From: Planctomycetota bacterium
Lineage (GTDB): Bacteria; Planctomycetota; UBA11346
Direction of reading: 5' to 3'
Assembly (NCBI GenBank): GCA_038231435.1
Contig: JBBRLJ010000003.1
Coordinates: 32,001 to 96,000 of the forward strand
Length of the DNA stretch: 64,000 nt
Positions 17,499 through 39,927 of this stretch are shown here, piece after piece. The notes beneath the pieces were generated by a model. That model made no database searches. It saw nothing but the letters and a program-made list of their open reading frames with translations, and was not told where the DNA came from. The first letter of the stretch is position 1. Each line of letters opens with the position of its first letter. The translations under genes were made by a program, and so were the position numbers.

Positions 17499-17501
17499 CA
17501 A

Positions 17502-18326: not shown

Positions 18327-18456
18327 GGGCACCTGCGACTGCGACGATGGCGTGGCGCCGGCGCGGCTCATGCCCGCAGGGTATCCTCGAGCCGCCCGGC
18401 CACACCCCGGAAAGCGCCGCCCGTTGGCGCCAGCCCATGGGCGGGTACCGTGCCGC

Positions 18457-19251: not shown

Positions 19252-19323
19252 AATCGACATGCGCTCCGTCGATCATGCCATGGGCGATCGACGCCGACGC
19301 TCATGCTGGCGGTCGAGGCACCC

Positions 19324-21183: not shown

Positions 21184-21185
21184 TC

Positions 21186-21280
21186 ATGACCATATTTGAC
21201 ATCATAAAGACCAGCTCGGGTATGTAATGCTGGATTCATCGATTAAGATGCCATTCATCTGCCGAAGCATATGACCATAT
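21186..21280. promoter_or_regulatory. AT-rich promoter region with a direct repeat ATGACCATAT (21186-21195, 21271-21280) and TTGACA at 21196
   Basis: Locally AT-rich intergenic stretch in high-GC DNA, with an exact 10-bp repeat. No -10 box at canonical spacing from the TTGACA. Confidence 0.45.
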
Positions 21281-21338
21281 CCACTGTGTGGCGAACGAAC
21301 TTTTCGCGACGCGGTCCGGACGCCGGCCCAGGAGCCAC

Positions 21339-22178
21339 ATGACCAACGCGACCGCTACCTCCGCCAAGCCCCTGACCGACGCCCAGACCAAGCACTTCGC
21401 CGAGCGCGGCTACCTGGTGCTCGACGGCTTCATCCCGCAGCCTCTCAACGACCTGCTCAAGCGCGAGATCGACACCTGGCTCGCCGCCGCCAAGGGCGAC
21501 GACGACCGCTACGCGACGCCGACGGGCGAGGCGCCTAAGCGTCCTCTGCAGATCGAACTGCCGGAGCACGGCAAGCTCGTCAGCCATCCGCCCCTGATGG
21601 ACATCATGGAGCAGCTGATGGGGCCGGGCTTCGGCTACCATCACCTCCACACCGCGCGCCACGACGCCGGCTGCGACGGCGTGAACTGGCACCACGACTA
21701 CGAGCAATACCCGCAGGCCAACCGTTCGCACCTGATGACGCACGTCTTCTACTACCTCAATGGGCTCGACGGCACCGTCGGCGATCTGCTCGCGCTGCCG
21801 GGGACGCAGAACCTGGTGATGGAGCGCAACGCCTACTCGGTGTGCGGTACCGGCACGCTCCCCGGCGAGATGGTGTTCGACAACCTCTCGCCCGGTTCGG
21901 CGGTGATCGTCCACTCGGCATTGCTGCACGCCCGTCGCGCCAAGCCGGGGGGCGAGGGCAAGGCGCGCTACTTCATCGACTGCTCGTACTGCCAAGCTGG
22001 CACCGCCTGGCCGGCGTCATGGAACTACAAACAGCAGTTCGCGCGCGCGCGCGAACTCGGCCTCGATCGCGGCGGCCGATACGCCCATCTCTTCGACGAA
22101 GCAACCTTCTTCGATCCGCAGAAGGGCATGGAGAAATTGCGCGCGATCAACAAGGGCAGCCTGGTGCAACGACTCTAG
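21339..22178 (+). CDS. PhyH-family Fe(II)/2-oxoglutarate dioxygenase
   Basis: LTDAQTKHFAERGYLVL, WHHD (HxD) and distal LLHARR. GGAG ribosome-binding site. Confidence 0.85.
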   Translation: MTNATATSAKPLTDAQTKHFAERGYLVLDGFIPQPLNDLLKREIDTWLAAAKGDDDRYATPTGEAPKRPLQIELPEHGKLVSHPPLMDIMEQLMGPGFGYHHLHTARHDAGCDGVNWHHDYEQYPQANRSHLMTHVFYYLNGLDGTVGDLLALPGTQNLVMERNAYSVCGTGTLPGEMVFDNLSPGSAVIVHSALLHARRAKPGGEGKARYFIDCSYCQAGTAWPASWNYKQQFARARELGLDRGGRYAHLFDEATFFDPQKGMEKLRAINKGSLVQRL

Positions 22179-22318
22179 GAGCACCACTGGTGCAGGCTCT
22201 AATAGGACTCTAAATACGTTTTAATACAGTGCTTTAGTGACTTCGGCACGATCCGCGCGATGCCGGCGCGGCTGGACGCGCGGCCCTGACGAAGCACTAT
22301 CAGGGCTGGAGAGCCGAC

Positions 22319-23122
22319 ATGCAACTCACGCAGGAGCAACGAACCAGCTTCATCAGCGACGGTTACGTGTGCGTGCCGGGCGCGGTCCCACGCGCGCAGG
22401 TCGACGCGGTGGTGCGCGCCATCAACCACGATATCGGCAAAGGCATTGATCCGGCGATGCTGCCGACGTACCGCGTCCAGAGCTACTGCCCGTCGCTGGT
22501 GTCGACTCCGCTGGTGACTGGGCTGTTCAACGATTCGCCAGCGATGGCACTGTTCCAATCCGCGCTCGGCGCGGGCCGGGTGAAGCCGGTCACTGGTTCG
22601 CAGATCGCCTTGCGCTTCCCCGGCAGCGCCAATCCGCCGATCAACCCGCCTATCAACTCGCCCAAGCTCAACCCGCCGCACGTCGACGGCATCTCCAACG
22701 CCGAAGGCACCAACGGCGTGCCCAAGGGCAGCATTGCCAACTTCACCGCGCTCGCCTGCATCCTGCTGAGCGATCTACCCGAGCCGCTGTCGGGCAATTT
22801 CATGGTCTGGCCTGGTACCCACCGCAGCAACGCCGCGCATCTGCGCGTGCATGGCTCGCGGGCGCTCTTGCACGGCATGCCGAATACCAACTTGCCCGAG
22901 CCGGTGCAGATCACTGGCCGCGCCGGAGACCTGATCATAGCTCATTACCTGCTGGGCCACAGCGTGGCTCCGCACCTCTCGCCGCACATCCGCTACGCCT
23001 GCTTCTTCCGCGTCGAAACCATCGATCACGAGGAGACGCGCGAAGCGTCGCTCACCGACGAATGGCTCGAGTGGCACGGATTGCGCGACCTCCATTGCAG
23101 GGGCTTAGCCCCTACGGCCTGA
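22319..23122 (+). CDS. PhyH-family Fe(II)/2-oxoglutarate dioxygenase
   Basis: LTQEQRTSFISDGYV, PHVDG, GNFMVWPGTH, AGDLIIAHYLLGH...R. Confidence 0.87.
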   Translation: MQLTQEQRTSFISDGYVCVPGAVPRAQVDAVVRAINHDIGKGIDPAMLPTYRVQSYCPSLVSTPLVTGLFNDSPAMALFQSALGAGRVKPVTGSQIALRFPGSANPPINPPINSPKLNPPHVDGISNAEGTNGVPKGSIANFTALACILLSDLPEPLSGNFMVWPGTHRSNAAHLRVHGSRALLHGMPNTNLPEPVQITGRAGDLIIAHYLLGHSVAPHLSPHIRYACFFRVETIDHEETREASLTDEWLEWHGLRDLHCRGLAPTA

Positions 23123-23172
23123 CGGCCTACCCCACGGGCTTGGTCGTGGAGCGACGGGGCCCCGGGGTAGGC
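23098..23172. repeat. REP-like element, type B (GTAG-footed hairpins on the minus strand), overlapping the end of the second phyH gene
   Basis: CAGGGGCTTAGCCCCTACGGCCT...GCCTACCCCACGGG closely matches 53671-53710. GCCTACCCC pairs with GGGGTAGGC at 23164-23172. Confidence 0.75.
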
Positions 23173-23234
23173 ATGTCAGATGATGGGCGACGTCGTCCGT
23201 GCATTGGGGTCTGCGAGAGAACTCCCGGAATTAC

Positions 23235-24029
23235 TCAGCTGGGACGGACAGTGCTCGGAGCGCTGCCGTGGCGGGCGCGCCAGGCGCGCGTGAGATCCGC
23301 GCGACGCGCGAATCCCGCCTGCTCCGCCGCCTCGGCGACGCTCGCGCCTTCGTCCAGCAGGTGGCGCGCCATGCCCAGGCGCAGCTGCAGGATCATCTGC
23401 TTGGGCGAGGCACGGAAGAACGCCTTGAACACCGCGTGCGCCTGGCTGGGGCCGAGCCCGCTGGCCGCGAGGATGCGGCGCGTCGTCAATCCTGGCGTCA
23501 TCGGCCACAACGCCGCAGTCATGCGATCGAGCGCTGGATTCGGATAACTCATGGTCGCGAGGCGTTCGGCCGCCAGGCCACGGCACAGCCGCCGCCCCAA
23601 CTCCCGGCGATCGTCCGCCGACGAGCTGCGGGTAAGGCGCTCGCACCAGCCATGGTACGGCTGCAGCGGTGCGCGGCCCCAGACCCGCACGCCGTCGCCG
23701 CGCACCTCGAAGTCGGTCACGTCGCTCACCGCGCCGATGTCGATGTACTGCGCCTTCGCCCGCAGCGGCGCGTGGCGGTGGCGCGTCGCCGGAGGGATCG
23801 CCAACGCCTCACCGGCGAGCAGGTCGTGGCTGCCCTGGGGGCCGCCCTCGATGCGCACCGCGCCCGCGAGGCAGACGACCACCGTCGGGATGTGATGGAG
23901 ATGATCGCCGACGTCGCGTGGGCAGGAACGCGCGACCCAGCGGTCGGCGCGCCCGAGGCTCTCGCCCGCAGCTGCCAACCGTGCCATCGCCCGCGCCAGA
24001 TCCGGGTCATGCAACGAAGTGGCCGCCAT
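23235..24029 (-). CDS. AraC-family transcriptional regulator
   Basis: Cupin HLHHIPTVV...IPPATRH. HTH ARHLLDEGASVAEAAEQAGFARRADLTRAWR...APS. Confidence 0.85.
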   Translation of the reverse strand: MAATSLHDPDLARAMARLAAAGESLGRADRWVARSCPRDVGDHLHHIPTVVVCLAGAVRIEGGPQGSHDLLAGEALAIPPATRHRHAPLRAKAQYIDIGAVSDVTDFEVRGDGVRVWGRAPLQPYHGWCERLTRSSSADDRRELGRRLCRGLAAERLATMSYPNPALDRMTAALWPMTPGLTTRRILAASGLGPSQAHAVFKAFFRASPKQMILQLRLGMARHLLDEGASVAEAAEQAGFARRADLTRAWRARHGSAPSTVRPS

Positions 24030-24151
24030 GCGGGCAGCATAGGACCATAACCTACGGTCTCAATCGCAGTTCGTGTACCCAGGATCGCGAGAGGACCGGC
24101 CTCCGCCCACTCCCGGTGCGTAAGCATTGGGGCAACCAGCCGGAGCTTGCC

Positions 24152-25015
24152 GTGATCACCATCCCGATCTCCCCGGACGAACGCCTCGCCGGAACCATCT
24201 CGGACACCCACCTGTGCGAAGCCGTCGCGGCGATGCGCGAGGATGGCGCGGTGGTGCTCGAGGGCGCGGTGGATCCCGTGCACGTCGCTGGCTTGCGCGA
24301 GCGGATGCTCGCCGACGTCGAGCGCGTGCTGGCGCGCACGGACGTGCCGTACAATTTCAACCGCGGCAACGTGCAGCAGTCTCCACCGCGCGCGGCGCGC
24401 TGGCTGTTCCGTGACGTGCTCTGCAACGAGCAGGCGATCGCCGTGACCCGCGCACTGCTCGGCCCGGGGCCCACCAACAACTTCTACAGCGGCAACACCG
24501 CCTTGCCGCACTCGAGCGAGCGCCAGCCGGTGCACGTCGATGGCGGGCATCTGTGGCCAGCCGATGCCGGATACACCCCGCCGAACGGCATCGTGGTCAA
24601 TCTGCCGCTGGTGGACATGGATGCCGGCAACGGTTCGACCGAACTCTGGCTCGGGTCGCATCGCGACCTCACCATGCATGTGTCCATGGATCTGCCGGTT
24701 CCAGCTGCCGCCATCGCCCAGCGCCGCGCGCACTGCCCGCCGCTGCAACCGCGTGTCGTGGCCGGAAGCCTGCTGCTGCGCGATCTCCGCCTGTGGCACG
24801 CGGGCATGCCGAACCCGAGCGCGTCGCCACGGCCGATGATCGCGATGATCCATTGGGCATCGTGGTGGCGGAATCAGGACGTGCTCGAGTTCCCGACAGA
24901 TGCCGAGCTGATCCTCGCTCATGGGGAATTGCGCACGAACGCCCGCTTCGTCGCGGGCGCGATCGACCACACGCTCCTGGACCATGCCTATGCATTCACT
25001 GGATCCGACGTCTAG
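24152..25015 (+). CDS. PhyH-family Fe(II)/2-oxoglutarate dioxygenase
   Basis: GTG start after GGAG. Motifs QPVHVDG, NGSTELWLGSH, GSLLLRDLRLWHAG..N...PRPM. Confidence 0.87.
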   Translation: MITIPISPDERLAGTISDTHLCEAVAAMREDGAVVLEGAVDPVHVAGLRERMLADVERVLARTDVPYNFNRGNVQQSPPRAARWLFRDVLCNEQAIAVTRALLGPGPTNNFYSGNTALPHSSERQPVHVDGGHLWPADAGYTPPNGIVVNLPLVDMDAGNGSTELWLGSHRDLTMHVSMDLPVPAAAIAQRRAHCPPLQPRVVAGSLLLRDLRLWHAGMPNPSASPRPMIAMIHWASWWRNQDVLEFPTDAELILAHGELRTNARFVAGAIDHTLLDHAYAFTGSDV

Positions 25016-25135
25016 ACGTCCAGTGGATCAGGCGGCTTGGTGCGCCACGGCCTCGCCAAGGAATCCTGGGCACCCGGGCTACCAAGCACCCGGCCGCTTC
25101 TTCCATACCACGCTCCTGCGGGTACGACGAGCAGC

Positions 25136-27436
25136 ATGCCGACACGTCGCCTGGTCATCTCGTGTTGCCTCGCGGTCTCGGCATGGTCGCTCGCCCCGCA
25201 GGCCGGGGCTCAGGACGACATGCGCCTGCGGGCGATCCGTGCGGCATCAGGCGAGGATGCAGGGATCGGCGCCGGCCGCGTGGCTCCGGCGCCGGCGCGC
25301 TCCAGCGGGTTCGCCAACCTGCTGCCGCCCGCGCCCTCGATCACCGGCGTCACCGCCACGCCAGCGGGCGCCGTCGGCCAGTTCACCAAGCTGGAGCTGA
25401 CCGTCGCGATGACCAATGCCGCCGGGACGTACGATCCGGATCCGGCGCACGCCGCGGGCGTCGACCTGAGCGGAACATTCATCGGCTCGGCCGGCGGATC
25501 CGCGCCACAGGTCATTCCCGGATTCTTCGACGGCACCGCGTGGAAGATCCGTTTCGCGCCCGACCAGCCGGGCGCCTGGACCTATCGCATCGATGTCACG
25601 ACCGCCGGAGGGTCCGCCGCCTTCACCACCGGCTCGTTCGCGTGCACGATATCCTCGGGCCATGGGTGGTTGCGCGCGTCGGGCACGCGCCTGGTCTTCA
25701 ACGACGGCACCGGCTTCATCGGCAATGGCCACAACAGTGGTTGGCAGACCGATGCTGAGACTCCGCCGCTCGCGCAGATGGCAGCTGGTGTCGAGAACCT
25801 GCTGAGCTTCTGGCTGGTACAGCCGTGGGCCTCGACCGATCCCGCGAGCGGCGGCAACTACAATCCGACGCGCGCGCCGATCGAGAACGCCTTCCACGGA
25901 CTCGGCAACTACGAGCAGCCGTCGTGCCAGTACATCGATGGCGTCGTGCAGCGCGCCGAGGCGGCCGGCGTCTATCTGCTGCCTTCGATCTGGGCGCATG
26001 ACCAGCTGCATACGCCCACCACCCCAGTGGCCGACGGCTGGCCCTCCTCCTGGGACAACAATCCCTACCAGACGATTTGCGCTCCGGCCGCGTTCTTCAC
26101 CCTGACCAGCGGCAGCGTGGACACGCCGCAGTGGACCTATCAGAAGAATTTCTACCGCTACCTCATCGCGCGCTGGGGCTACAGCACCGCGATCGCGGGC
26201 TGGGTCGCGGTGGTCGAGGCGGAAGGCACGACGGCGGGCGCGGCGAGCATGTCGCAGGCGTCCACGTGGAGCGCCGCCGTGAACAGCTGGTTCGCGGCCA
26301 TCGATCCGTTCCGGGGACCCGCGTCGACCTATCCCATGGGCATCAGCCGCAGCGACGGCTCCGCATCGGCGCTGACCTGGACGACCGGCTGCGGCCTGCG
26401 CGCGTACGATTCGTACCAGTCGAAGAACAGCGACACCGCCATCGGTGCAACGATCGCGACCCAGACCCGCACCATGCGTGGCGGCGGCGCGCCGGTCCTC
26501 CACAGCGAGTTCGGCGGCGATGTCTCGGGCGGCGCGAACCAGCCAGCGCATCTGCATGCAGGCTTGTGGGCGGGGCTCGCGGCCGGGTCCGCCATGACGC
26601 CGCTGTTGTGGACCGACGGCGGATCGTACCCCCTGCTGACCGATGCGACCTCGGGCGCGGCCATGCGCGACGAGTACGCGCGCCTGGCGCAGTTCGGCGC
26701 CACGATCCCCTGGGCCGCCGGTCCAGGCGTGGCCGAATCCGCGCTGACCATCAGCGGCGGAGCGACCTACGCAGCCTGGGGCATGCAGCTGGGCGATCGC
26801 GGCTGGGCCTGGATCCAGAATTCCGCCGGCACCATCTCGCCCCAGACCCTGACCGCGGCGGGGTGCTCGCCCGGCACCTACCGCGTCGCCTGGCACGATC
26901 CGTGGAGCGCCAGCGGCATCCCGATGGCCGTGGTCGCCCCCGTGGTGGTGGGCGGTGGCGGCATCCTGTCGGTCGGTGTTCCCGCCCACGCGCGCCGCGA
27001 CATCGCCTGCCGCTTCTGGCGCAATGCCGCACCCACCGCGAGTGCCCAGGCGGTCGCGATCGCGGGAGCCACCGCGATCACGCTCGCCGGCGCAGATGCG
27101 GATGGGGATGCGCTCGCCTTCGTCATCGCGACGCCTCCCGCCCACGGGACGCTCACCGGGACGCCTCCGTCCGTGACCTATGTGCCCGGCAGCGATTACG
27201 CCGGCAGCGATGTCTTCACCTTCACCACGGGCGACGGCCTGGCCTCGTCGGCGCCCGCCACCGTCACCCTCTCAACGGCGGCCGCGGCGACCTCGGGAAG
27301 CGGCGGCACCGCTCCGGGCATCGGTGGTGGTGGTGGTGGTGGTGGTGGCTGTGGCCTCGGTGGTCTGTTCGGCCTGGTCACGGTCCTGGCGCTCTTCGCG
27401 AGTCGCCGGGGCACGGGGCCCAGACCCCGTTCCTGA
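25136..27436 (+). CDS. Secreted, surface-anchored putative glycoside hydrolase: DUF5060-like Ig domain, clan GH-A-like barrel, Big_9/cadherin-like domain, Gly-Cys C-terminal sorting signal
   Basis: Signal peptide; PGFFDGTAWKIRFAPDQPGAWTY; RYLIARWGYS; candidate catalytic Glu in VVEAE and HSEFGG; NAAPTA...DADGDALAF...PAHGTL...GSDVFTF; tail G9-CGLGG, TM helix, RR. Confidence 0.72.
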   Translation: MPTRRLVISCCLAVSAWSLAPQAGAQDDMRLRAIRAASGEDAGIGAGRVAPAPARSSGFANLLPPAPSITGVTATPAGAVGQFTKLELTVAMTNAAGTYDPDPAHAAGVDLSGTFIGSAGGSAPQVIPGFFDGTAWKIRFAPDQPGAWTYRIDVTTAGGSAAFTTGSFACTISSGHGWLRASGTRLVFNDGTGFIGNGHNSGWQTDAETPPLAQMAAGVENLLSFWLVQPWASTDPASGGNYNPTRAPIENAFHGLGNYEQPSCQYIDGVVQRAEAAGVYLLPSIWAHDQLHTPTTPVADGWPSSWDNNPYQTICAPAAFFTLTSGSVDTPQWTYQKNFYRYLIARWGYSTAIAGWVAVVEAEGTTAGAASMSQASTWSAAVNSWFAAIDPFRGPASTYPMGISRSDGSASALTWTTGCGLRAYDSYQSKNSDTAIGATIATQTRTMRGGGAPVLHSEFGGDVSGGANQPAHLHAGLWAGLAAGSAMTPLLWTDGGSYPLLTDATSGAAMRDEYARLAQFGATIPWAAGPGVAESALTISGGATYAAWGMQLGDRGWAWIQNSAGTISPQTLTAAGCSPGTYRVAWHDPWSASGIPMAVVAPVVVGGGGILSVGVPAHARRDIACRFWRNAAPTASAQAVAIAGATAITLAGADADGDALAFVIATPPAHGTLTGTPPSVTYVPGSDYAGSDVFTFTTGDGLASSAPATVTLSTAAAATSGSGGTAPGIGGGGGGGGGCGLGGLFGLVTVLALFASRRGTGPRPRS

Positions 27437-27570
27437 CTCCCTGACCGGCCGAACTCAGCGCGCCGGGCCGGCTTCGGATCAGCGCGCGACTTTCCCCTGT
27501 CGCATGCCGTAGCATATGGAACGGCTTCCGCTTACGCCGTCACAGGCTCGTCCTGGCGGCGTTTCCGCAC

Positions 27571-30500
27571 ATGCCCACTCCGCCAGTCCCCGCACCAGCC
27601 GACCCGAACCTGCCGATGCGCGGTCCGCTGACCACCTCGTTCATGCTCCATTGCGGGGTGTTCCTGGCGATCAACGCCCTGGCTTGGGCCAACGTGCGCA
27701 GCGTCCAACGTCAATCCGACGCCTTCATCGAGCACATCGCCAAGAAGGAGCGGCGCGACGCCGAACAGGCGCGCAAGGAGCAGGCTGACGCCGCCAAGGA
27801 CGCCGCGAAAAGCCAGCTCGCCATGGAGATGGCCGACATCATCGCGGCCGACGTGCGCTCACCGGATCTCGACCGCATCATGGCCATGACCACCGACGGG
27901 ATCTCGGACCTGTTCCAGGACCAGGACGGCGGAGCCGCCGACTACGATCAGGACCGGCTCGCAGCCCTCGATCGCGTCCAGGCCAATGCCGACCAGCTGC
28001 TGCGCGAGGCGCTGGTAGCGCAGGTGCGGCAGTACATCCGCGACCAGGTCGCTCCCGAGATCAAGGAGCGCATCGCGCACGAACTCAAGAACCAGACCGG
28101 TGGCGAGCTCGAGAAGACATTTGCGGGCAAGCTCCGCGAGGACAAGGCCAAGCGCCTGCACGAAGACGCCGGTGCTTTGCGCAAGCAGGCCGAGGAGCTC
28201 GGCCAGGAGCGCCGCGAGCTCGAACAGGCGCGCGGTGAGGCGGAACGTGGCGAGGCCAAACCGGCGGGCGAGCGCGCTGGCAAGGCGCGCGACGCCTTGG
28301 GCAAGACCGAGCAGGCCGTCGCGGCGAGCGCCGCGGCGGCCGCCCACGATGATCCGAGCCTGGCCAAGGACGCGGAAGCGGCCAAGGATTCCACCGCCGA
28401 GCGCGCCGCCGTCGATCAGGCCAGCGCGTCCGCTCCCGGCGAAAAGACCACAGCCGTCGCCGACCTCGCCGCCGCCGGCCAAGCGATCGAGCAGCGCGCC
28501 CAGGCACTGGGGAAACTGGCCCAGCAACTCGACGAGCATGCCAACAACCAACCGGGTTTCGACGGCCTCGAGCGGCGTATCGCCGCTGCCGCCAAGGACC
28601 AGGTCGACACCGCGCTGCGCGACCAGGTGGCGCGCGAGGTCACCGACAAGGCGATCCCCGAGGCAACCGACAAGATCATGCAGGCGGTGGGCAAGGACCT
28701 GGGGCAGCTCGGCATCAAGCAGGAGGAATTCGCCGGACTGCTCAAGCAGGATATCGCCAAGGCGCTCTCCGAGGGTCTCGGCGCACCCGACGCGTCAGCG
28801 GCCTGGTTGCGCACCGAGCAGGCGGTGGGGCTCGACGCCAGCCGTGGCATCGACGCCGCGCGTGACGCGGTATCCACAGCGGCCGAGAAGCTCGCGGCGC
28901 TGGCCCAGCGACAGGATGCGATCAAGGCCGTGGCGGATCACCCGATCAATGCCCAGGCGCCGCAGGAATCCGCTCTCGCCGACGATATCGCCACTGCCGA
29001 ACGCTCGGCGAAGGACGCGCTGACGACGACGCGCGAGGATTCCCTGGCCAGCGAGGCCGAGGTCGATCGCGGCCTCGAGCAGCTGCGCCACCATTCCTCC
29101 AGCGACCTCGCGGCGCATGCGGCGGCGGCGAGCAGGAACGGTAACGTCAGCGACGCCGCGCGCTTCATGGACGACACCGCGCGCACGCTGCGCGAATCGG
29201 CCGCCAAGCTCACGGAAGTCGCCGGCGCGCTCGATCGCGAGATCGCCGCGCGCGACGCGGCGGCGAAGGATCTGGCGGCGAAGATGGGACCGCTCGCGGC
29301 CAAATCCATGACCGGATCCCTGGACACGGGCGCGACGCAGAGCGCCGATGCGCTGGCAGCAGCCGGCAAGCAGGTGGTGTCGGCGAGCGCGAACCGCAGC
29401 GTCGACACCGCCGTCGGCCAATTCCAGGCCGGCAACGTCCTCGGCAACGCCGGGCGGCTCGCCCAGCTCAAGCAGCTGATGGAATCGGTGGCGCAAGCGA
29501 AGAAGAACGCCGCCGAGGGTCGCACCGGCGGCTCGCCCACCCTGTTCGGGGCGCCCGCGGGCGGCATGCGTGGCAAGGGCGTGGCCAAGGCGGCGCTGGT
29601 GCGCTTCAATCGCGACGCGTACGAAGCCTTCGTGAAAGACCTGCGCAGCCGCACCAATCCCGGCAACGCCTATGCGCCGGTCGCCGAAGTCACCGGGATC
29701 GACAGCGTCGCCGAGCCCGAAAGCGGCCCTTTCCCCGCCGTGGTCTACGCTCCCGCCAAGGACCAGGCTAAGGGCCAGGCGACCGACGCCGCCAATAGCC
29801 AAAAGAGCCCCACGAGCCCCAAGCCGCCCGAACGGAAGGTCGAGGAGCCCACCTACAAGCACGTCGCCTTCGGCTGCGCAGCAATGGTCGAGCATCCTAT
29901 CGTCATCGATGGCGATCTCGGCGATTGGGGCGAGCTCACCCATCCGATGGCGATGCAGTACGGCGTGCAGGACGCGAACGCCAGGATCGAGAACGGCACC
30001 AAGGTCTACATGCGCTGGTCGAACGACGGCCTTTATCTAGGATACGTCGTCCATGACGACGGCGGCGTTCAGCAGCCGTCGGCAAAGACGCCGTACATGG
30101 GCGACTGCCTCGAGTTCTTCATCGACATGGAGAACGGCCGCCGCGGAGCGATGGCGCAGAGCCAGTTCTCTCACCAGTTCATCTTCACGCCTTTCGGCTG
30201 CGCCGAGGAGGCGCGCGTCACGTTCTCCGAGATCGGCCGCAGCTTCCGTGGCCTGTCGCAATTCCAGCCGTATCCGGACACCGAGCGCAAGCGCGGCTGG
30301 TCCGCCGCCAAGCAGATCGCCGGTGGCTACAGCGTCGAATGCTTCGTGAAACGCCAGGCCCTGTCCAAGCCGGTGCTGGTGCCCGGCGCCTACCTGGCCA
30401 TCAACTTCTCGGTGAACATCGACGCCCAGGAAGCCCACCAGACGCAATGGTCGGCCTCGAAGGCGATCAACAGCTGGGACAAGCCGGACACCTGGGGCGA

Positions 30501-30933
30501 CGTGCTGCTCCTCGGCGCAGACGCCTCGGTGCGAGCGCTGACCCTCGACGCCAAGCCACTCGAGCGCGTCATCCCCGGGCAGGCGGTGATGGTCGAGATC
30601 ACCGACCCTGACATGGACCTGGATCCCGCGCACGAAGACCGCGTCATGGCCACGGTCGGCGTGAAGGATGCGGTGGACCAGGTGATGATGGTGCTCAAGG
30701 AGACCGGGCCCGACACCGGCGTGTTCCGTGGTTCACTCAACACCCAGCTCTATCTCGACGAAGCCAGGAAGAACACCGTCAGCATCCGACCCGGAGACGT
30801 TCTCGAGATCGGCTACGACGATCCGCGCGCCGCCTATGGCGAGCAGCACCGGCGTGTGGCCGCGGATCTGCCCGTCGCGCACCCGGTCATCACCTTGTCG
30901 CTGCGCCAGACTCCGGCACCCTCACCCCAATAA
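27571..30933 (+). CDS. TonB/TolA-like membrane-anchored protein with a long helical stalk, a CBM9-like (DOMON-like) domain and a C-terminal Ig-like domain
   Basis: Single N-terminal TM with SFMLH (SxxxH). About 650 aa of Ala/Glu/Lys/Gln-rich helix. IDGDLGDW...WSNDGLY...GDCLEFFID...GYSVE...WDKPDTWG. Then DPDMDLD...LKETGPDTGVFRG. Directly upstream of exbB/exbD. Confidence 0.72.
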   Translation: MPTPPVPAPADPNLPMRGPLTTSFMLHCGVFLAINALAWANVRSVQRQSDAFIEHIAKKERRDAEQARKEQADAAKDAAKSQLAMEMADIIAADVRSPDLDRIMAMTTDGISDLFQDQDGGAADYDQDRLAALDRVQANADQLLREALVAQVRQYIRDQVAPEIKERIAHELKNQTGGELEKTFAGKLREDKAKRLHEDAGALRKQAEELGQERRELEQARGEAERGEAKPAGERAGKARDALGKTEQAVAASAAAAAHDDPSLAKDAEAAKDSTAERAAVDQASASAPGEKTTAVADLAAAGQAIEQRAQALGKLAQQLDEHANNQPGFDGLERRIAAAAKDQVDTALRDQVAREVTDKAIPEATDKIMQAVGKDLGQLGIKQEEFAGLLKQDIAKALSEGLGAPDASAAWLRTEQAVGLDASRGIDAARDAVSTAAEKLAALAQRQDAIKAVADHPINAQAPQESALADDIATAERSAKDALTTTREDSLASEAEVDRGLEQLRHHSSSDLAAHAAAASRNGNVSDAARFMDDTARTLRESAAKLTEVAGALDREIAARDAAAKDLAAKMGPLAAKSMTGSLDTGATQSADALAAAGKQVVSASANRSVDTAVGQFQAGNVLGNAGRLAQLKQLMESVAQAKKNAAEGRTGGSPTLFGAPAGGMRGKGVAKAALVRFNRDAYEAFVKDLRSRTNPGNAYAPVAEVTGIDSVAEPESGPFPAVVYAPAKDQAKGQATDAANSQKSPTSPKPPERKVEEPTYKHVAFGCAAMVEHPIVIDGDLGDWGELTHPMAMQYGVQDANARIENGTKVYMRWSNDGLYLGYVVHDDGGVQQPSAKTPYMGDCLEFFIDMENGRRGAMAQSQFSHQFIFTPFGCAEEARVTFSEIGRSFRGLSQFQPYPDTERKRGWSAAKQIAGGYSVECFVKRQALSKPVLVPGAYLAINFSVNIDAQEAHQTQWSASKAINSWDKPDTWGDVLLLGADASVRALTLDAKPLERVIPGQAVMVEITDPDMDLDPAHEDRVMATVGVKDAVDQVMMVLKETGPDTGVFRGSLNTQLYLDEARKNTVSIRPGDVLEIGYDDPRAAYGEQHRRVAADLPVAHPVITLSLRQTPAPSPQ

Positions 30934-31022
30934 CCAGCACGCGACCTCCGACCATCCGGGCCACTGCCCAGCCAGGCTCTCAGCCAAATCCCAGCCAGAC
31001 TCTCGAAGAAGGATCATTCCAG

Positions 31023-31913
31023 ATGCGAATCACCATGCGATCGATCACGCGCCTCGTCGCCATGCTCGTGCTCACCGCCCTCGTCGGCGGCGCGAGCCGC
31101 GCGGCCGACGCTCCGGCTGCGGCGGTTCCCGCCCCGGTCTCCACTCATACTGCGGACGCCACGGCTGCCACAGCCTCCAGGGCTCCGGCTTCGACCAAGG
31201 CGGCTGAAGTCAGCGAAGGCAAGGGCGACCCCGGATTCAACGTGGTGGGCGAGGTCTTCTCGTGGGGCATGACGCCGCTGTGGATCTGCTCGTTCATTCT
31301 CGTCGCGATGGTGATCGAGCGCACGCGCTCGCTCAAGCCCGAGCGCGTGCTCGATCCGAAGATGGTCGACGAGGTCGCCACCCTGGTCGGCGACCTGAAG
31401 CTGACCGAAGCGCAGAGCCGAGCCGAGAGCTCGGGCACGGTGATCGGCAAGGCCTGGGCCCAGGGCCTGCACGAATTCTCGCTCGGTGGCGTGCCGTTCG
31501 CCGAGGCGCTGACCAACTCAACGGTCCTCGCCTTCAAGCCACTGAAACGCAACCTCCAGGGCATCGCCACCATCGGCGTGATCTGCCCGCTGTTCGGCCT
31601 GCTCGGCACCATCGTGGGCATGATCATCACCTTCACCCACATCTCCGCGGCGGGCGGCGCCAACAAGTCGGCGATCGCCGGCGGCATCGCCTTCGCGCTG
31701 GTCAAGACCGCCGGTGGCCTGGTGGTGGCGATCCCGGCGATCGTCGCTGGGCGTTACTTCCAGGGCCGTCTCGGCGGCTTCGCGGTGCAGGCCGAGGCGG
31801 CGATCAACCGCATCAACTACCGCCACAGCCATGGCCTGTCGCTGTCGCGCAAGGGCGGCTCCGATGCCGCCGAGCCGGCGCCGGTGTCGTTGGCGATGGC
31901 TGGGAGGATCTGA
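31023..31913 (+). CDS. exbB: MotA/TolQ/ExbB proton-channel subunit with a signal-peptide-like N-terminal extension
   Basis: IATIGVICPLFGLLGTIVGMI...IAGGIAFALVKTAGGLVVAIPA. Start may be 31035. Confidence 0.9.
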   Translation: MRITMRSITRLVAMLVLTALVGGASRAADAPAAAVPAPVSTHTADATAATASRAPASTKAAEVSEGKGDPGFNVVGEVFSWGMTPLWICSFILVAMVIERTRSLKPERVLDPKMVDEVATLVGDLKLTEAQSRAESSGTVIGKAWAQGLHEFSLGGVPFAEALTNSTVLAFKPLKRNLQGIATIGVICPLFGLLGTIVGMIITFTHISAAGGANKSAIAGGIAFALVKTAGGLVVAIPAIVAGRYFQGRLGGFAVQAEAAINRINYRHSHGLSLSRKGGSDAAEPAPVSLAMAGRI

Positions 31914-31914
31914 C

Positions 31915-32325
31915 GTGCAGAAGAGCCTGACCTCCGAGCTCGAGGAATACGACGATCGCGCGGATCTCATCCCGATGATCGACTGCGTATTCCTGATGCT
32001 GCTGTTCTTCGTCGTGACCGCGACCTTCTCTGACCAGAACCTCTTCCAGGTCGAGCTGCCGAAGGCAGAGCAGGCAGAGGTGCGCGACACCACCGACGCC
32101 ACGGTGGTATGCATCTCGAAGAACGGCAATTTCGCGCTTGGCCAGGACTACGTGGCCGACGACGCCTTGATGGCGACGCTACGCGCGCAGCTCGCCGAGC
32201 GCAAATCGAAGACCCTGGTCATCCAGGGCGACAAGGGATGCCCATACGAGAAGGTGGTGATGGCCGTCGATGCCGCGCACGCACTCGGCGTCAACGAGTT
32301 GTGCCTGGCGGTCGCGCAGCAGTGA
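31915..32325 (+). CDS. exbD: ExbD/TolR biopolymer transport subunit
   Basis: GTG start after GGGAGGA. DLIPMIDCVFLMLLFFVV carries the conserved TM Asp; also VELPKA and LVIQGDK..PYEKVV..VD. Confidence 0.9.
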   Translation: MQKSLTSELEEYDDRADLIPMIDCVFLMLLFFVVTATFSDQNLFQVELPKAEQAEVRDTTDATVVCISKNGNFALGQDYVADDALMATLRAQLAERKSKTLVIQGDKGCPYEKVVMAVDAAHALGVNELCLAVAQQ

Positions 32326-32378
32326 GCGGCTGAGCTTTCACGGCGGCCTTCCGCCGCGAACCGAGGACACGCCGCCTC

Positions 32379-33329
32379 TCAGCCGAGCGCGCGCACGGTC
32401 TTCCCGGGCACGATCGCGCATGCCGGGATCGCGGGCAGCTTCGCCACGCCGGCCAATGCTTTCGCGGCGATCGCCGCGAGCTCACGGAACGGATACGCCA
32501 GCGTGGTGATTCCGGGATAAAGCCCAGTGAAGGTGGGGCTCGCGTCCACGCCGAGCACCGACACATCGACCGGCACCGACATGCCAGTATCGCCGAGGGC
32601 GCGGATCACGGACAACGCCTGCCAGTCGTTGAGGCAGAAGAACGCGGTCGCGCGCCCGTCGCGGGCCATGGCGGCGATCAGCCCGTCGTCGGGACCATGG
32701 ATGACCGTAGCCTCGAGTCCGGATTCGATCATGGCCGAGCGGTAGCCCGCCTCGCGCGCGACGATGCCGTGCGCGCGACGGTGGTATGAGAGATGGACGA
32801 TGCGCCGATGGCCGAGGCCGAGCAGATGGAAGGTCGCGGTACGCCCCGTTTCGTGCTCGTCGGGCGATAGGAAACGCACACTCGGCCCGAGGCAGGGCGC
32901 GACGAACGAGACCACCGGCAATGCTCCGTCGAGCTCCGAGCGCAGGCGGATCCCCTCGGCCGGCGGCACCACGACCACTCCGGCGGCGCGGCGCGCGGCG
33001 AAGTCGCCCAGCGCCTCGTGGAATTCGCGCTCGTTGTCCACCTGCGCCAACAGCAGGCGTAGGCCGGAGGGCGCCACCGCCTTGCGCACCTCGTTCATGA
33101 GATCGAGGAAGAATGGACTGTCGATCGCCGGCACCAGCGCACCGATGGTGCGGCTCGTGCCGCGCATCACCTCGAGCACCGCTGGATTGGGCCGGTAGCC
33201 GTGGCGTTCGGCCATCGCCAGGATCCGGCCGCGGGTCACGGTGCTGATTCCGGGCCGATCGTGCATGGCGCGATCCACCGTACCCTGCGAGACACCGCAC
33301 AGGCGCGCCAGCTCCAGCGACGAGATCAT
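32379..33329 (-). CDS. LacI-family transcriptional regulator
   Basis: ELARLCGVSQGTVDRAMH...GYRPN HTH; FCLND..A, VPVDVSVLGVD, ITT. ATGA overlap with the GH116 gene. Confidence 0.92.
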   Translation of the reverse strand: MISSLELARLCGVSQGTVDRAMHDRPGISTVTRGRILAMAERHGYRPNPAVLEVMRGTSRTIGALVPAIDSPFFLDLMNEVRKAVAPSGLRLLLAQVDNEREFHEALGDFAARRAAGVVVVPPAEGIRLRSELDGALPVVSFVAPCLGPSVRFLSPDEHETGRTATFHLLGLGHRRIVHLSYHRRAHGIVAREAGYRSAMIESGLEATVIHGPDDGLIAAMARDGRATAFFCLNDWQALSVIRALGDTGMSVPVDVSVLGVDASPTFTGLYPGITTLAYPFRELAAIAAKALAGVAKLPAIPACAIVPGKTVRALG

Positions 33330-35950
33330 CGGCGTACGGACGGCGCCCGCACGGACCCGGATCCCCGTTTCGCCGGCGCACGCGTGGCGCGCACCGGCAC
33401 CACGACAGCCAGCGACTGGCCCGCGCGCAAGCGCTTGGTGGGCGCGAACGCCGCCTCGCCTACGTCCGCGAGGACGATCCTGGCGAGGCCCAGTTCTCCG
33501 TGCAGCACCCGCAGCGTCACCGTGATCCCACGACCCGAACGCTTCTGCGAGCAGGTGCCCCAGGCGTCGCCGGTGGACCAGAAATCGCGCGTGCCTGAGG
33601 GCGCCGCGCGGAAGGTCATCGCGCCCTCGACCGCCGAATAGTGGAACCCGGTCAGCGCCAGCACGCCCGCCCACGCCACCATCGCCCGCGCGTAGTGGTG
33701 GCCGCATTCGGCCTCGTCGAAGGGGCTGCGCCGTGCGCCGTCGTAGCGCGCGCGCACCGCGGCGATGCATTCGAGGCCCTCGTCCGCCAGGCCTTCCTGG
33801 ATCATCCCCACGGCGGCGGTGTGCTCGAAGCCGGTCATCACCTCGTTGTAATACGGAAACGGCCGCTTCGGACGCCGGCCGCGCGGGTACGTCGCCATCA
33901 GCAGCGCGTGCTCGTCGCTCAGGGCGAAGGAGCGCAGATGGTTGAAATGGCCGTACAGGCCGCGCTTGAAGTTGTGGCGATGGATGCTCGCCAGGGTCTT
34001 GGCGATCTTCCTGCGGTCACCCAGGTAGCCGAGCCCGCAGATGTGCGCCTGCATCTGGCCGACCAGCTGATCGACCAAGCACCCGGATCCGAGCTGCAGA
34101 TCGGGGGACATGCTGCCGCCCGCCCCCATGTTGTGGCGCAGGCCCTTGGCGATGGCGGTCTCCGGCATGGGCCGGATCTCGTGCTCGTAATATTCACCGT
34201 TGAAGAGATTGGCATCGGTCCAGGCGCTGCCGCGCTCGAAGAGCGCGCGACACTCGTCGGCGAAGGCGCTGTCACCGAGATGGCGGGCCATGTCCTCGCA
34301 CGCGCGCAGCGCGCCGAGATACCAGAACTCCATCTGCGGATTCGGCCCGTAATATTCCACGTCCATGGTGTTGTGCTGGCAGCCCTCCATCACCCCGTCG
34401 CGATCGGCATCCCAGCCGCCAGGGATCCAGCAGAACTCGAGGGCCTTGCGCACCCTCGGCCAGTGCGCGCGCAGGAAGCGCTCGTCGCCGCACAGCCGCC
34501 AATCGCGATGGAAGCGCATGATCGAGCCCATCTGCCCATCGGCGGCGGCGATGCCGAATTCCTGCGCGCGCGCGATCGGCAGGTTGACGCGGAAGCTCAT
34601 GTGCCCGTCGTCGCGGGTCATGTGGCCGAATTCCACCTCGCGCATCGAACGGGTCAGCTCGCCGAAGAGGAAGGCCGTGCACTGCTCGTAATTCCACACG
34701 TGGGTGCACGAGCCATTGCAGCATCCCGAGGTGTCGCCACAGCCCTCCCAGCCATAGAACCGCCCATCCGGCGTTCTGAAGCAGGTCTGCGAACGCAGCG
34801 TGCTGACGTTGTAGAGCGCAGCCTCCTTCACCACCTCAGGCAGATCACTGGCGCAGAAGGCGCGCACGAAGCCGAGGGTGCGCTCCTCGAGTCGCGGCAG
34901 CTCGCGCACCGTCCGGGTGACCACCTCCCAGGCGTCGCGGTAGACGGTGGTGTAGTGATTGCCGATCCAGTTCGGATTGGCGCACGACTGACCGGGCGCG
35001 CATCCGGCTGGTCCGCAGGCACCGGCCGGAACCACCAGCGGCTTGCCGTCGGCTCCCTGCGCCGGGCTCCAGGTCATGCGATTGGGGAAATGCCAGGAGA
35101 TCAGGAAGGTCACCTCGCGCTCCGAACGCGCGGGCACGGTGACGGCGACGGCGAGCGAACCGAGCTGGCTGTCGACACCGCCGCCGTCGCGCTGCTCGAG
35201 CTGGCCATCGGCGCTGAAATCATCCCAGAAATCGAGCATGGAATCGCCCCAGCTGAGGTTCGCCCAGCCAGTGCGGTGGCTGGCGGAGCCCGCGGTAGGC
35301 GTCGACAACGCCATGGTGCCCCACTGTTCGGCCGCGCGATCCACGCCATCGGAGCGCATGAACACGCCGCGCACGCCGTCTCCAGCGCGGTATTCGTTCA
35401 CGCTTCCTTTCTGTTTGGCGACGTTGGTCTCGTAGCCGACGATGTTCTCCATGGTGCCGCACACCGAGGCGCGCACCGGCTTGGCCGAGCGGTTGCGCAA
35501 CACGAAGCGGATGACCGCCATGGGTATGCTGCTGGCCTCGACGTCGCCCGGGACCAGGGGATTGAAGGCCTGCATGGTCACCGAGAGCGGGACGTCAGCA
35601 TCCGACAGTTCGACCTGGCCGAATGGATACGCGGCGAGGAACCGGCAATCGCGGAAGCGGGGCAGGCCGTGGTTCGGCACGGTACTGCCGAATCCCCCCT
35701 CGAACGGGGGCTGCAGCGCGCCCTCGAGCGCGCGCGTCACCGCCGGGCCGCCAGACGGTTTCGCCCACAGGGCGAAGAAGCAATGCCGTGGGGTGTAGCC
35801 CTTGGCGGGCTTGTTCATGACCTCCCAATCGCGCAGGTCCCCTCGGCCACCGAGCGAGACGGTGCCGGTGCCGATGCCGCCGAGCGGCAGGGCGATGCGG
35901 GCGAGATGGTCCGAGTCGTAGCGGGTGAGCACGGGCCAAGCACTGGGCAT
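33326..35950 (-). CDS. GH116 (GBA2-type) glycoside hydrolase
   Basis: IALPLGGIGTG, YPFGQV, AFNPLVPGD..SSIP, CTHVWNY, AADGQMG, DGVMEGCQHNTMDVE, GCLVDQLVGQ, EVMTGFE, ECGHHYARAM. Confidence 0.9.
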   Translation of the reverse strand: MPSAWPVLTRYDSDHLARIALPLGGIGTGTVSLGGRGDLRDWEVMNKPAKGYTPRHCFFALWAKPSGGPAVTRALEGALQPPFEGGFGSTVPNHGLPRFRDCRFLAAYPFGQVELSDADVPLSVTMQAFNPLVPGDVEASSIPMAVIRFVLRNRSAKPVRASVCGTMENIVGYETNVAKQKGSVNEYRAGDGVRGVFMRSDGVDRAAEQWGTMALSTPTAGSASHRTGWANLSWGDSMLDFWDDFSADGQLEQRDGGGVDSQLGSLAVAVTVPARSEREVTFLISWHFPNRMTWSPAQGADGKPLVVPAGACGPAGCAPGQSCANPNWIGNHYTTVYRDAWEVVTRTVRELPRLEERTLGFVRAFCASDLPEVVKEAALYNVSTLRSQTCFRTPDGRFYGWEGCGDTSGCCNGSCTHVWNYEQCTAFLFGELTRSMREVEFGHMTRDDGHMSFRVNLPIARAQEFGIAAADGQMGSIMRFHRDWRLCGDERFLRAHWPRVRKALEFCWIPGGWDADRDGVMEGCQHNTMDVEYYGPNPQMEFWYLGALRACEDMARHLGDSAFADECRALFERGSAWTDANLFNGEYYEHEIRPMPETAIAKGLRHNMGAGGSMSPDLQLGSGCLVDQLVGQMQAHICGLGYLGDRRKIAKTLASIHRHNFKRGLYGHFNHLRSFALSDEHALLMATYPRGRRPKRPFPYYNEVMTGFEHTAAVGMIQEGLADEGLECIAAVRARYDGARRSPFDEAECGHHYARAMVAWAGVLALTGFHYSAVEGAMTFRAAPSGTRDFWSTGDAWGTCSQKRSGRGITVTLRVLHGELGLARIVLADVGEAAFAPTKRLRAGQSLAVVVPVRATRAPAKRGSGSVRAPSVRR

Positions 35951-36823: not shown

Positions 36824-38952
36824 CACGCCTCCCGCAATTCGGCTTCGGACGGCTGCGGCTCGGGAGCTCTCGGCGAGGATCCGAGTAGCCGACCGCCAGT
36901 GAGGAAGGCCAAGCATTCGCGGATGGTGTCGACCAGCACTACCAGGATGGCGACCATGAAGACGGCGCATAGCGCGCCGTCGACGCGATTGTTGAAAGCC
37001 TTCTTGCGCAGGTCGCTCAGCTGCTGCCCCAGCGCCGTCGCGGCGGCAGGATCCGCTGGGGCGGGCGCGGCCGCTAGCGTCGCGATTTGCGCGTCGGTGC
37101 CGCGGGCGAGCTCGAGGAAGTTCACCGCCTTGTCCGATGATGCCAGCTTCTGCCAGCCGGCGGTCTCGGTCACGACCACCAACCACAGCAGTGGGATGAT
37201 GGTCACGAAGGCGAAGCGCGCCTTGCCCATCTTGACGATGATGGTCGTGCCCACGCACAGGGCGATCGCCGCCAGCACCTGATTGGCTATCCCGAAGACT
37301 GGCCACAACGTGTAGATGCCGCCGAGCTTGTCGTAGACGCCGGTCAGCAGGAAATATCCCCAGCTCATGGCGACGACGAAGCTCGCGATCCAGGCCGCGG
37401 GTTGCCATGAGACATTGCCGAAACGTTTCCAGACGTGGCCCACCAGATCCTGGAGGATGAAGCGGCCCACGCGGGTACCGGCGTCGATGGTCGTGAGGAT
37501 GAACAGCGCCTCGAACATGATCGCGAAGTGGTACCAGTGCTTCATCGCATCGGGGCCGGGAATGATGTTCGAGAAGATCCGCGCCATGCCCACTGCCAGG
37601 CACGGAGCCCCGCCTGCCCGCGATAGGATGGATTTCTCACCGACCTCGTCGGCGAGTCCCTGCAAGGCTTCCGGAGTGATGGCGAAGTTCCACTTCGAGA
37701 TGGTGGCCGCCGCCGAGGCCACGTCTGTGCCGATCTTGCCCGCGGGAGAATTCATCGCGAAGTAGGCTCCCGGTTCGAGCGCGCAGGCTGCGATCAGCGC
37801 AAGCACAGCGACGAAGCTCTCCATCAGCATCGACCCGTAGGCGATGGGGCGGGCGTGGCTCTCGCGCGCGAGCAGCTTCGGGGTGGTGCCGCTCGAGACC
37901 AGCGCGTGGAATCCGGAGATCGCGCCGCAGGCGATGGTGATGAATGCGAACGGGAACATCGTGCCAGCCGATACCGGCCCGTTGCCGTGGGCGAACGGGC
38001 CGCCATCGGCGAACTGGGTTACCAGCTTGGGCATCAGCAGCGGTGGCATGACGATGAAGATGCCCGCAGCGAGCAGGAAGACGGTGCCCACCTTGATGAA
38101 GGCCGACAGGTAGTCGCGCGGCGCGAGCAGCAGCCACACCGGCAGCACCGAGGCGGTGAAACCGTAGCCGATGATGAGCTTGGCCAGCGTGTCGCGCGAC
38201 AGGCTGAAGATCTGGCTCAGCTTGGGGTCGTCGTTGGCGTATTTCCCGGCCCACAGGGACGCGATCACCAGCACCAGCCCGATGAGGCTGGCCTCGAGCA
38301 CTCTGCCGGGACGGATCCAGCGCATCCACACGCCCATCAGCAGCGCGATCGGGATGGTCAGTCCGACCGACACCACGCCCCACGGGCTGTCGGCCAGGGC
38401 GTTGACCACCACCATCGCCAGAACCGCGGTGAGGATGATGATGATCGCGAACACCCCGAAGAGCGCCATCCAGCCGCCGACCGGCCCGATCTCTTCGCGC
38501 GCCATCTGGCCCAGCGATTTGCCGTCGCGGCGCATGCTGCCGCAAAGGATGACGCAGTCCTGGGCCGCGCCGCCTAGCACCACGCCGACGATGATCCACA
38601 GCGCCCCGGGCAGGTAGCCGAACTGCGCGGCCAGGATCGGCCCCACCAATGGGCCCGCTCCGGCGATGGCCGCAAAGTGGTGGCCGAACACCACCCATTT
38701 GTTGGTCGGCACGTAGTCGTGGCCGTCGTCGAGCCGCACCGCCGGAGTCGGGCGCGCGTCGTCGAGAGCGAAGATGCGGTTGGCGATGATGCGGCTGTAG
38801 AAGCGGTAGCCGATGGCGTACGTGCACAGCGCGGCGGTGAGCAGCCAGGCGGCACTGACGGTCTCGCCGCGATGCAGGGCGAGCACGGCGAACGCCCAGG
38901 CGCCCGCCGCAGATACCGCGCCCCAGCCCAGGATCGACCATATCCGTCGCAT
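36823..38952 (-). CDS. cstA: Carbon starvation protein A family peptide/pyruvate transporter
   Basis: DGHDYVPTNKWVVFGHHFAAIAGAGPLVGP, WLLLAPRDYLS, ITIACGAISGFH, FEALFILTTIDAGTRVGR, LWPVFGIANQ. Confidence 0.95.
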   Translation of the reverse strand: MRRIWSILGWGAVSAAGAWAFAVLALHRGETVSAAWLLTAALCTYAIGYRFYSRIIANRIFALDDARPTPAVRLDDGHDYVPTNKWVVFGHHFAAIAGAGPLVGPILAAQFGYLPGALWIIVGVVLGGAAQDCVILCGSMRRDGKSLGQMAREEIGPVGGWMALFGVFAIIIILTAVLAMVVVNALADSPWGVVSVGLTIPIALLMGVWMRWIRPGRVLEASLIGLVLVIASLWAGKYANDDPKLSQIFSLSRDTLAKLIIGYGFTASVLPVWLLLAPRDYLSAFIKVGTVFLLAAGIFIVMPPLLMPKLVTQFADGGPFAHGNGPVSAGTMFPFAFITIACGAISGFHALVSSGTTPKLLARESHARPIAYGSMLMESFVAVLALIAACALEPGAYFAMNSPAGKIGTDVASAAATISKWNFAITPEALQGLADEVGEKSILSRAGGAPCLAVGMARIFSNIIPGPDAMKHWYHFAIMFEALFILTTIDAGTRVGRFILQDLVGHVWKRFGNVSWQPAAWIASFVVAMSWGYFLLTGVYDKLGGIYTLWPVFGIANQVLAAIALCVGTTIIVKMGKARFAFVTIIPLLWLVVVTETAGWQKLASSDKAVNFLELARGTDAQIATLAAAPAPADPAAATALGQQLSDLRKKAFNNRVDGALCAVFMVAILVVLVDTIRECLAFLTGGRLLGSSPRAPEPQPSEAELREA

Positions 38953-39060
38953 GCGCCCCTCTTTAGCGGCGGGAGCGGGCTTGGCTACTACCGCAACTGG
39001 GCGCATCGCCTGCCCCAGCCCCCGCTAGGAGCGGGCGGGGGTGCTGGTATTCTCCCAGCC

Positions 39061-39927
39061 ATGGCTTGGGTGGAGCTCATCCCGGGCAAGCGCTTCGAGG
39101 AGGTCGTGAGGCCGGTCGGCCTGGGCGCCTTCCCCTACCGCGTGACCTTCGAGCGCCTGCATGCGGTCGAATGCAAGCTCACCCACACCGTCCGCCGGCA
39201 TCGCCACGGCAACTACGAGATCATGCTGATCGTGGGCGGGTCGTACGTCTGCACCATCAACGACCAGCGCTGCACCCTGCACCGCAACGGCGTCGCGGTG
39301 CTCAAGCCCGGAGACTGGCACGAGGACCTGTGCTCATCGCCGGTCGAGTTCATGAGCCTGACGCTGAAGGTCCAGCCCGGCCCCGACGCGACCACCTCGG
39401 CCTCTGTGTTCTCGGACGCGATCCCGCCCGCGGCCCAGGCCTTCGCCACCGCTGGGCACCTGCATGCGATCGCGGCGCGCATGCGCGCCGAGGGCGGACA
39501 CGCGGATCCGTTCTCGCCGCCGCTCCTGGACGCGCTCGCCTTCGAGTTCATCTGCGCCCTGCTGCGCTCGATGCCGAGCGCGTACATCAATCCCAAGCTG
39601 CTCGACGAGAATCCCCACCACGCATTCGCCACCGCGCTGTTGACGCTCTTCGATCGCAGCCTCGGCTCGCCGCTCGGGCTGGGCGACATGGCCAAGCATC
39701 TGGCGATGAGCGAGCGCTCGCTGAGCGCGCGCTGCCGCGCCGCGTTCAAGACCTCGCCCACGCGGTTGTTCGTGCGCTTCAAGATGGAGCGTGCGCGTAC
39801 GCTGCTCATGCAGACTGATACGCCGATCAAGGAGATCAGCCGTTACCTGGGCTTCGAGAATCCGTACCACTTCTCGACCGTCTACAAACGCGTGCACGGC
39901 TTTTCGCCCGCGCACCACCGCTGTTAG
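39061..39927 (+). CDS. AraC-family transcriptional regulator
   Basis: Cupin HRHGNYE...KPGDWH. HTH IKEISRYLGFENPYHFSTVYKRVHGFSP. Confidence 0.9.
   Translation: MAWVELIPGKRFEEVVRPVGLGAFPYRVTFERLHAVECKLTHTVRRHRHGNYEIMLIVGGSYVCTINDQRCTLHRNGVAVLKPGDWHEDLCSSPVEFMSLTLKVQPGPDATTSASVFSDAIPPAAQAFATAGHLHAIAARMRAEGGHADPFSPPLLDALAFEFICALLRSMPSAYINPKLLDENPHHAFATALLTLFDRSLGSPLGLGDMAKHLAMSERSLSARCRAAFKTSPTRLFVRFKMERARTLLMQTDTPIKEISRYLGFENPYHFSTVYKRVHGFSPAHHRC

Follow-up and report, generated by a model that had tools for sequence, protein, structure and literature searches.

To our knowledge, every ExbBD or TolQR transducer that has been tested pulls on a protein. In the solved Ton and Tol motors, a Ser and a His of the transducer touch a Ser and a Trp in the first transmembrane helix (TM1) of the motor (PMC12905483). 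Motor-driven force transducers with a vWA head have been proposed and more are predicted (Williams-Jones et al. 2025, PMC12204202). How Planctomycetes bring large polysaccharides into their periplasm has yet to be explained (PMC5520146). The window analyzed here, 64,000 nucleotides from contig JBBRLJ010000003.1 of a Planctomycetota bacterium (GCA_038231435.1), encodes at positions 27571-32325 a long putative force transducer, hereafter the arm, followed by exbB- and exbD-family motor genes. The three genes are a conserved module. As a whole, with a probability of roughly 0.55, the module is read as a transducer that is driven by ExbBD and binds glycan with its head.

The arm (P0001, 27571-30933) is an open reading frame (ORF) of 1120 aa. 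The exbB/tolQ-family motor subunit (P0002, 31023-31913) has 296 aa and the exbD/tolR-family subunit (31915-32325) has 136 aa with a GTG start located one base past the exbB stop. All three genes and all parts of the arm described below are on the forward strand, in keeping with the co-oriented genes and the domain identities proposed in a first-pass annotation of the sequence. Pfam matched CBM9_1 in the arm (aa 786-982, E = 1.9e-10), MotA_ExbB in the first motor subunit (E = 3e-23) and ExbD in the second (E = 8.5e-26); the best NCBIfam scores of the motor pair were TolQ and TolR, below cut-off. The claim that the arm has no TonB C-terminal domain also stood, since neither Pfam nor NCBIfam matched a TonB_C or TolA C-domain and the last 350 aa are accounted for by CBM9 and Ig folds. 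The arrangement is no assembly artefact, since public contigs match across the region: those of run X1, which may itself be the source of this DNA, span 26500-33400 with 0 differing letters, and contig pieces of run X2 span most of it with one difference, the two runs together counting as one study. The genome that carries the window (G000) is 5.2 Mb and 88% complete.

The arm begins with about 19 residues ahead of a membrane helix (27628-27690) in which S23-x3-H27 was found at 27637-27651, where the first-pass annotation had placed it. A basic residue before the helix suggests an N-in/C-out topology. From 166 candidates, 135 had the C-terminal module, 110 of these had at least 450 residues before it and 101 had a hydrophobic N-terminal segment. 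SxxxH is present in 92 of the 101, compared to 20 in a background of 533 comparable ORFs from this genome; the query and four further arm-like proteins are among those 20. H27 is invariant in the aligned arms (22 of 22 rows). In a larger alignment of 91 arms His is also found in every row; however, this is not an independent count because the rows were drawn from His-bearing members. Among the later positions of the SHLS motif in these 91 rows, position 34 is hydrophobic (I/L/V/W/F) and position 38 is variable (A in 22).

The motor genes carry the residues that mark membership in the family. In 22 rows of ExbB, the TM1 Ser (S90) and the pore Thr pair (T196 and T229) are invariant and the TM3 Pro (P238) is nearly so; the membrane Asp of ExbD (D23) is invariant in 21 rows. 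Thus, together with the Pfam families, the key transmembrane residues claimed at the outset are present. The exbB gene adjoins the arm gene in 42 of 44 loci, namely 22 of 23 in a first set, 18 of 19 in a second set, the locus of the window itself, and its paralog on contig C19. The first set of 42 loci was reduced to 23 full members by dropping 19 CBM9-only matches, and the second, of 27 further loci, by dropping 5 duplicates, one Ig-only match and two loci cut at a contig edge. The exception in the first set (L011) has a second copy with a motor in the same genome, while the one in the second (L085) has an arm without Ser or His. Of the four findings that the first-pass annotation had named as fatal to its proposal, three, including a loss of Ser/His conservation and of exbBD linkage, did not materialize. 

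Three layouts occur: arm-exbB-exbD as in the window (type I), exbB-exbD-arm (type II), and operons that also contain a further exbD, a conserved lipoprotein of 335-385 aa and an exported protein of about 870 aa ending in a LamG domain (type III, L092-L095). No homolog of the type III lipoprotein or LamG protein was found in this genome or in type I and II loci. Trees of the head and of ExbB agree (37 pairs, Mantel r = 0.82, a value inflated by shared ancestry), although the type II arms go with ExbBs of two distinct clades, which points to one or more exchanges of the motor.

The CBM9-like domain (29866-30516), identified by Pfam, alignment and model, keeps its predicted binding-site residues. 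When aligned to TmCBM9-2, the clamp residues Trp71 and Trp175 correspond to Y842 (30094) and W969 (30475), and D780, D845, E848, D852, N855, Q869 and E923 are conserved, with Q869 placed by eye as the equivalent of Gln96. The acidic residues among them are, we presume, the calcium and sugar ligands of TmCBM9-2. Over 91 members, E848 is kept in 91, D852 in 90, D845 in 87, N855 in 85 and Q869 in 80; the first clamp position is aromatic in 83 and both positions in 45. The clamp and the hydrogen-bonding residues are thus strongly conserved at an overall identity of about 20%. Type II heads have extra Tyr residues before W960. From these comparisons, the CBM9 pocket of the arm family looks functional and varied. 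In CkCBM9.3, the same Tyr/Trp pair binds sugar with a preference for the reducing end (PMC8280721). Following the CBM9 domain, the Ig-like domain with the ETGPDTGVFRG motif (30526-30888) matched the N. maritimus S-layer protein 8c8k. The same type of Ig domain is also found in tandem, in many copies, in giant surface proteins; four of these (P0036, P0050, P0119 and P0161) have the archaeal Nitrosopumilus S-layer ETGxxTGVF domain in 9-42 matched stretches, with no specific Pfam model in those scanned.

Between the membrane and the head, an AlphaFold2 model of the arm (mean pLDDT = 80.6, pTM = 0.58) places a helical stalk (27691-29520) that is predicted to be continuous with the membrane helix (helix aa 19-94). 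The first-pass annotation had described some 650 aa of Ala/Glu/Lys/Gln-rich helix. The helical character and the richness in Ala held (23% of aa 45-650, followed by Asp, Leu, Glu, Gln, Arg, Gly and Lys); however, Asp and Leu outrank Glu, Gln and Lys, and the model has two four-helix bundles in place of a single rod. The first bundle (28141-28560, aa 191-330) is an optional insert, being an alignment gap in P0019-P0022, P0024 and P0025 and mostly a gap in P0027, and the second (28837-29241, aa 423-557) is unmatched in several homologs. The stalk ends in a Gly-rich hinge, a conserved helix FNRDAYEAFVKDLRSR (aa ~679-694) and a low-confidence Pro/Ser linker (29521-29865), as judged by alignment and model.

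By analogy with Ton and Tol, we infer an ExbB5-ExbD2 motor that docks the arm on ExbB TM1 and a head located in the periplasm; the proton dependence and the ligand are inferred as well. The ExbB/ExbD-family motor would likely dock the SxxxH helix, and proton flow would drive the helical stalk in the periplasm, with the CBM9 head predicted to take hold of a glycan. Since the predicted stalk helix carries on unbroken from the membrane, force may be delivered by a stiff lever and not by a wrap-and-pull linker as in TonB. The likeliest job, put forward tentatively, is to capture nutrient polysaccharides whose chains arrive in the periplasm. As CBM9 domains favor reducing ends, the head would hold the chain end and either draw the chain in or keep it for periplasmic hydrolases, with an outer-membrane pore encoded away from the module. 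A bolder version, which is doubtful, makes the arm a receptor-independent polysaccharide winch that grips the cargo itself, the first of its kind in the Ton/Tol motor family. Having seized a glycan chain by its reducing end, such a winch would reel it across the outer membrane via a passive pore, and its range of substrates would be set by interchangeable CBM9 pockets.

The neighborhood of the module was surveyed in 38 loci, where 263 ORFs were called within 6 kb and 223 were scanned with Pfam, the remainder being mostly short or distal. No TonB-dependent receptor was among the 223, no neighbor besides the motor genes was conserved across types, and no conserved TPR, TolB, Pal, CpoB, regulator or motility gene was found nearby; Tol-Pal-like genes were limited to one OmpA-domain gene 5.6 kb off (L009) and one PD40 protein (L029). 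The absence of a receptor, TolB and Pal therefore holds at the locus. The genome elsewhere encodes 3 TonB-dependent receptors and 2 TonB_C proteins, so that the term receptor-independent describes the locus only. In a comparison of 12 carriers with 12 of the listed non-carriers of the same family, carriers had more GH2 (median 7.5 versus 3.5, p = 0.001) and, among the matches listed, more sulfatases (median 16 versus 2, p = 0.03), while TonB-dependent receptors (median 4 versus 3.5) and genome size were similar; these p values are overstated because non-carriers cluster in few genera and the genomes are incomplete. With carriers rich in sulfatases and hydrolases and TonB-dependent receptors at a median of about 4, the module makes a concrete, testable candidate for uptake.

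Several observations weigh against a motor-driven, glycan-gripping arm. Type I ExbB lacks the TM1 Trp at Ser+4 (V94 in P0002) that TonB and TolA contact; type I proteins mostly have a Trp at Ser-3, whereas type II keeps the Ser+4 Trp in 12 of 13 rows. The second clamp position is Ser or Ala in 38 of the 91 members, mostly of type II, and both aromatics are absent in 4. Unlike in TonB, the 60 residues after the membrane helix hold a median of 1 Pro (at most 2 in 76 of 91 members) and no D-box was recognized after the helix. As the arm has no Pro-rich disordered linker next to the membrane, pulling in the manner of TonB cannot simply be assumed. A glycoside hydrolase, lyase or carbohydrate esterase lies beside 15 of the 38 loci compared to 4 of 15 random 12-kb windows of this genome (Fisher p = 0.53), so the sugar-enzyme neighborhood that the first-pass annotation had leaned upon is no evidence. 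The link to genome content is confounded by genus. No outer-membrane pore gene is conserved beside the module in the flanking scan, which leaves the entry route missing from it, and a module found in 24 of 401 genomes of the phylum (at E 1e-20, with two or three partial matches) is too rare to be a general uptake route of the phylum. Overall, the glycan-gripping transducer of the first-pass annotation keeps its SxxxH helix, exbBD linkage, lack of TonB_C and CBM9 residues, but draws no strength from the locus context, from the receptors encoded elsewhere or from the stretch next to the membrane.

The same module could pull on the glycan of its own envelope (peptidoglycan, periplasmic glucan, lipopolysaccharide or glycoprotein sugars) as a Tol-like tether or remodeller of a wide periplasm. 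The lack of substrate-specific neighbors and of a pore gene suits this role, as do the kinship of the Ig domain to S-layer and surface-protein repeats, a long helical stalk like domain II of proteobacterial TolA (PMC12204202) and the ability of this genome to make peptidoglycan (mur genes in L123). It is nonetheless unlikely, as the patchy occurrence (23 of 48 genomes of the host family, several copies in some) and the expansion of paralogs are more in line with an accessory part in nutrition than with a core one in the envelope, and carriers are richer in hydrolases and sulfatases. Somewhat less probable still is a head that targets a protein, such as an unlinked outer-membrane pore, a lipoprotein or a surface enzyme, through its Ig or CBM9 surface, with sugar binding being regulatory or vestigial. 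In its favor, proteins are what TonB and TolA act on, type III loci supply a conserved lipoprotein and LamG protein, and many type II members keep only half of the clamp; however, the type III partners have no homolog in this genome or in loci of the other types, and the clamp and hydrogen-bonding residues are strongly conserved despite the low overall identity.

A reversal of the flow of information, with an arm that senses glycan or anchors to it and so gates or positions the ExbBD channel for signalling or gliding-type adhesion, is improbable. A rigid helix from the membrane could carry a signal inward and a role in gliding has been suggested for vWA-headed arms (PMC12204202), but the short segment before the membrane helix leaves no cytoplasmic output domain and no conserved regulator or motility gene is nearby. 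Hardly credible is an ordinary membrane-anchored CBM protein beside a generic exbBD that serves TonB proteins elsewhere. The genome does have TonB_C proteins and receptors elsewhere, yet a TonB_C protein on contig C4 already has its own exbB and exbD, and the linkage of 42 of 44 loci, the SxxxH conservation and the congruent trees all argue against it.

Named carriers of the module are labelled Planctomycetota, Verrucomicrobiota (including the cultured Cerasicoccus maritimus, L026), Spirochaetota and one Anaerolineales bin. A library clustered at 50% gave 295 proteins at E 1e-30, some of which are Ig-repeat proteins and not members. The second module of this genome (C19:26603-31011, L001:8604-13012) is of type II with a Ser at the second clamp position, and GH38 and GH35 genes are nearby. 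The arm of L085 (7368-10439) is a family member whose locus has no motor genes and is possibly decoupled, a passive glycan-binding anchor. Arm genes in L019, L023, L024, L083 and L090 are broken across frames, probably by sequencing errors in the assemblies. Four other SxxxH proteins of this genome have a Pro-rich linker and a helical-barrel head (L107:7290-8963 on C3, L108:7847-9382 on C20, L109:7790-9487 on C22 and L110:7593-9383 on C40), with weak squalene-cyclase or pectic-lyase matches for three of the four heads. They are likely another class of ExbBD arms, for which an exbB-exbD-exbD set on C47 is a possible motor; two stand-alone exbD genes are on C5 and C36.

Around the module in the window, Pfam identified LacI and GH116, as first annotated, and a DUF5060 and Big_9 surface protein whose earlier label of glycoside hydrolase is plausible only (a match to solved DUF5060 proteins). 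This exported protein of 799 aa (25037-27436) ends in a poly-Gly run, CGLGG and a hydrophobic tail, which we take to resemble a C-terminal sorting signal; a DUF5060 protein is likewise upstream of the arm in L098. Pairs of an AraC regulator and a PhyH-family dioxygenase repeat at 17500-25000 and 38700-39900 and are also common in random windows of the genome. Elsewhere, L113:2359-7103 (contig C10) holds selA, selB and a selD-like gene, so that some TGA codons probably encode selenocysteine in this genome.

With the C-domain, linker and partner genes of either system absent, the arm is neither a TonB nor a TolA, though it resembles both at its membrane end. The module shares with TonB-ExbB-ExbD the Asp, Thr and Pro residues of the motor, a single N-terminal helix with the Ser-x3-His of SHLS and operon linkage, but the arm is 4-5 times longer, has a CBM9 and Ig head, and lacks TonB_C, a Pro-rich linker, a recognizable D-box and a linked receptor. 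With TolA-TolQ-TolR it shares the motor family and a long α-helical domain II; it differs in having no TolA C-domain, no conserved TolB, Pal or CpoB nearby and a patchy instead of a core distribution. To judge from its sequence, the arm fits the class of motor-docked, non-canonical transducers by its SxxxH helix, motor synteny and non-TonB head. The vWA transducers described in PMC12204202 likewise have an SxxxH helix, their own tolQR-like genes and a non-TonB head, and occur in PVC bacteria; in contrast, the arm has a CBM9 and Ig head on about 600 helical stalk residues in place of about 100 disordered residues with a motor box, and its module, which lacks a conserved TPR gene, usually has a single exbD (two in type III). 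The MUL1 locus of Akkermansia, which presumably also holds ExbB/ExbD-like and vWA genes, is set apart by description as it involves different protein families. Within it, mul1A is a mucin transport gene of a PVC bacterium (PMC12570417). Compared to the CBM9 domains of T. maritima Xyn10A (1i82) and C. kristjanssonii CBM9.3 (7nwn), the arm domain has the same fold, aromatic clamp (Tyr/Trp as in CkCBM9.3), Gln96 equivalent and acidic calcium-site residues, but is carried on a motor arm and not a xylanase, at about 22-26% identity and with an extra insert at about aa 875-905.

The claim that this architecture is undescribed holds for the head, as a literature search found no CBM9-headed motor system and the available text of PMC12204202 does not mention a CBM head; the concept has a precedent in the vWA-headed ExbBD transducers of that article. 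The notable novelty thus lies in placing a recognizable sugar-binding pocket on a known transducer plan, which makes the function directly testable. An intact pocket on the arm suggests that the motor can act directly on glycans, and the predicted rigid stalk bears on how motor rotation is converted into force. If true, a winch of this kind would offer one explanation of how glycans enter PVC bacteria that specialize in polysaccharides and have few TonB-dependent receptors.

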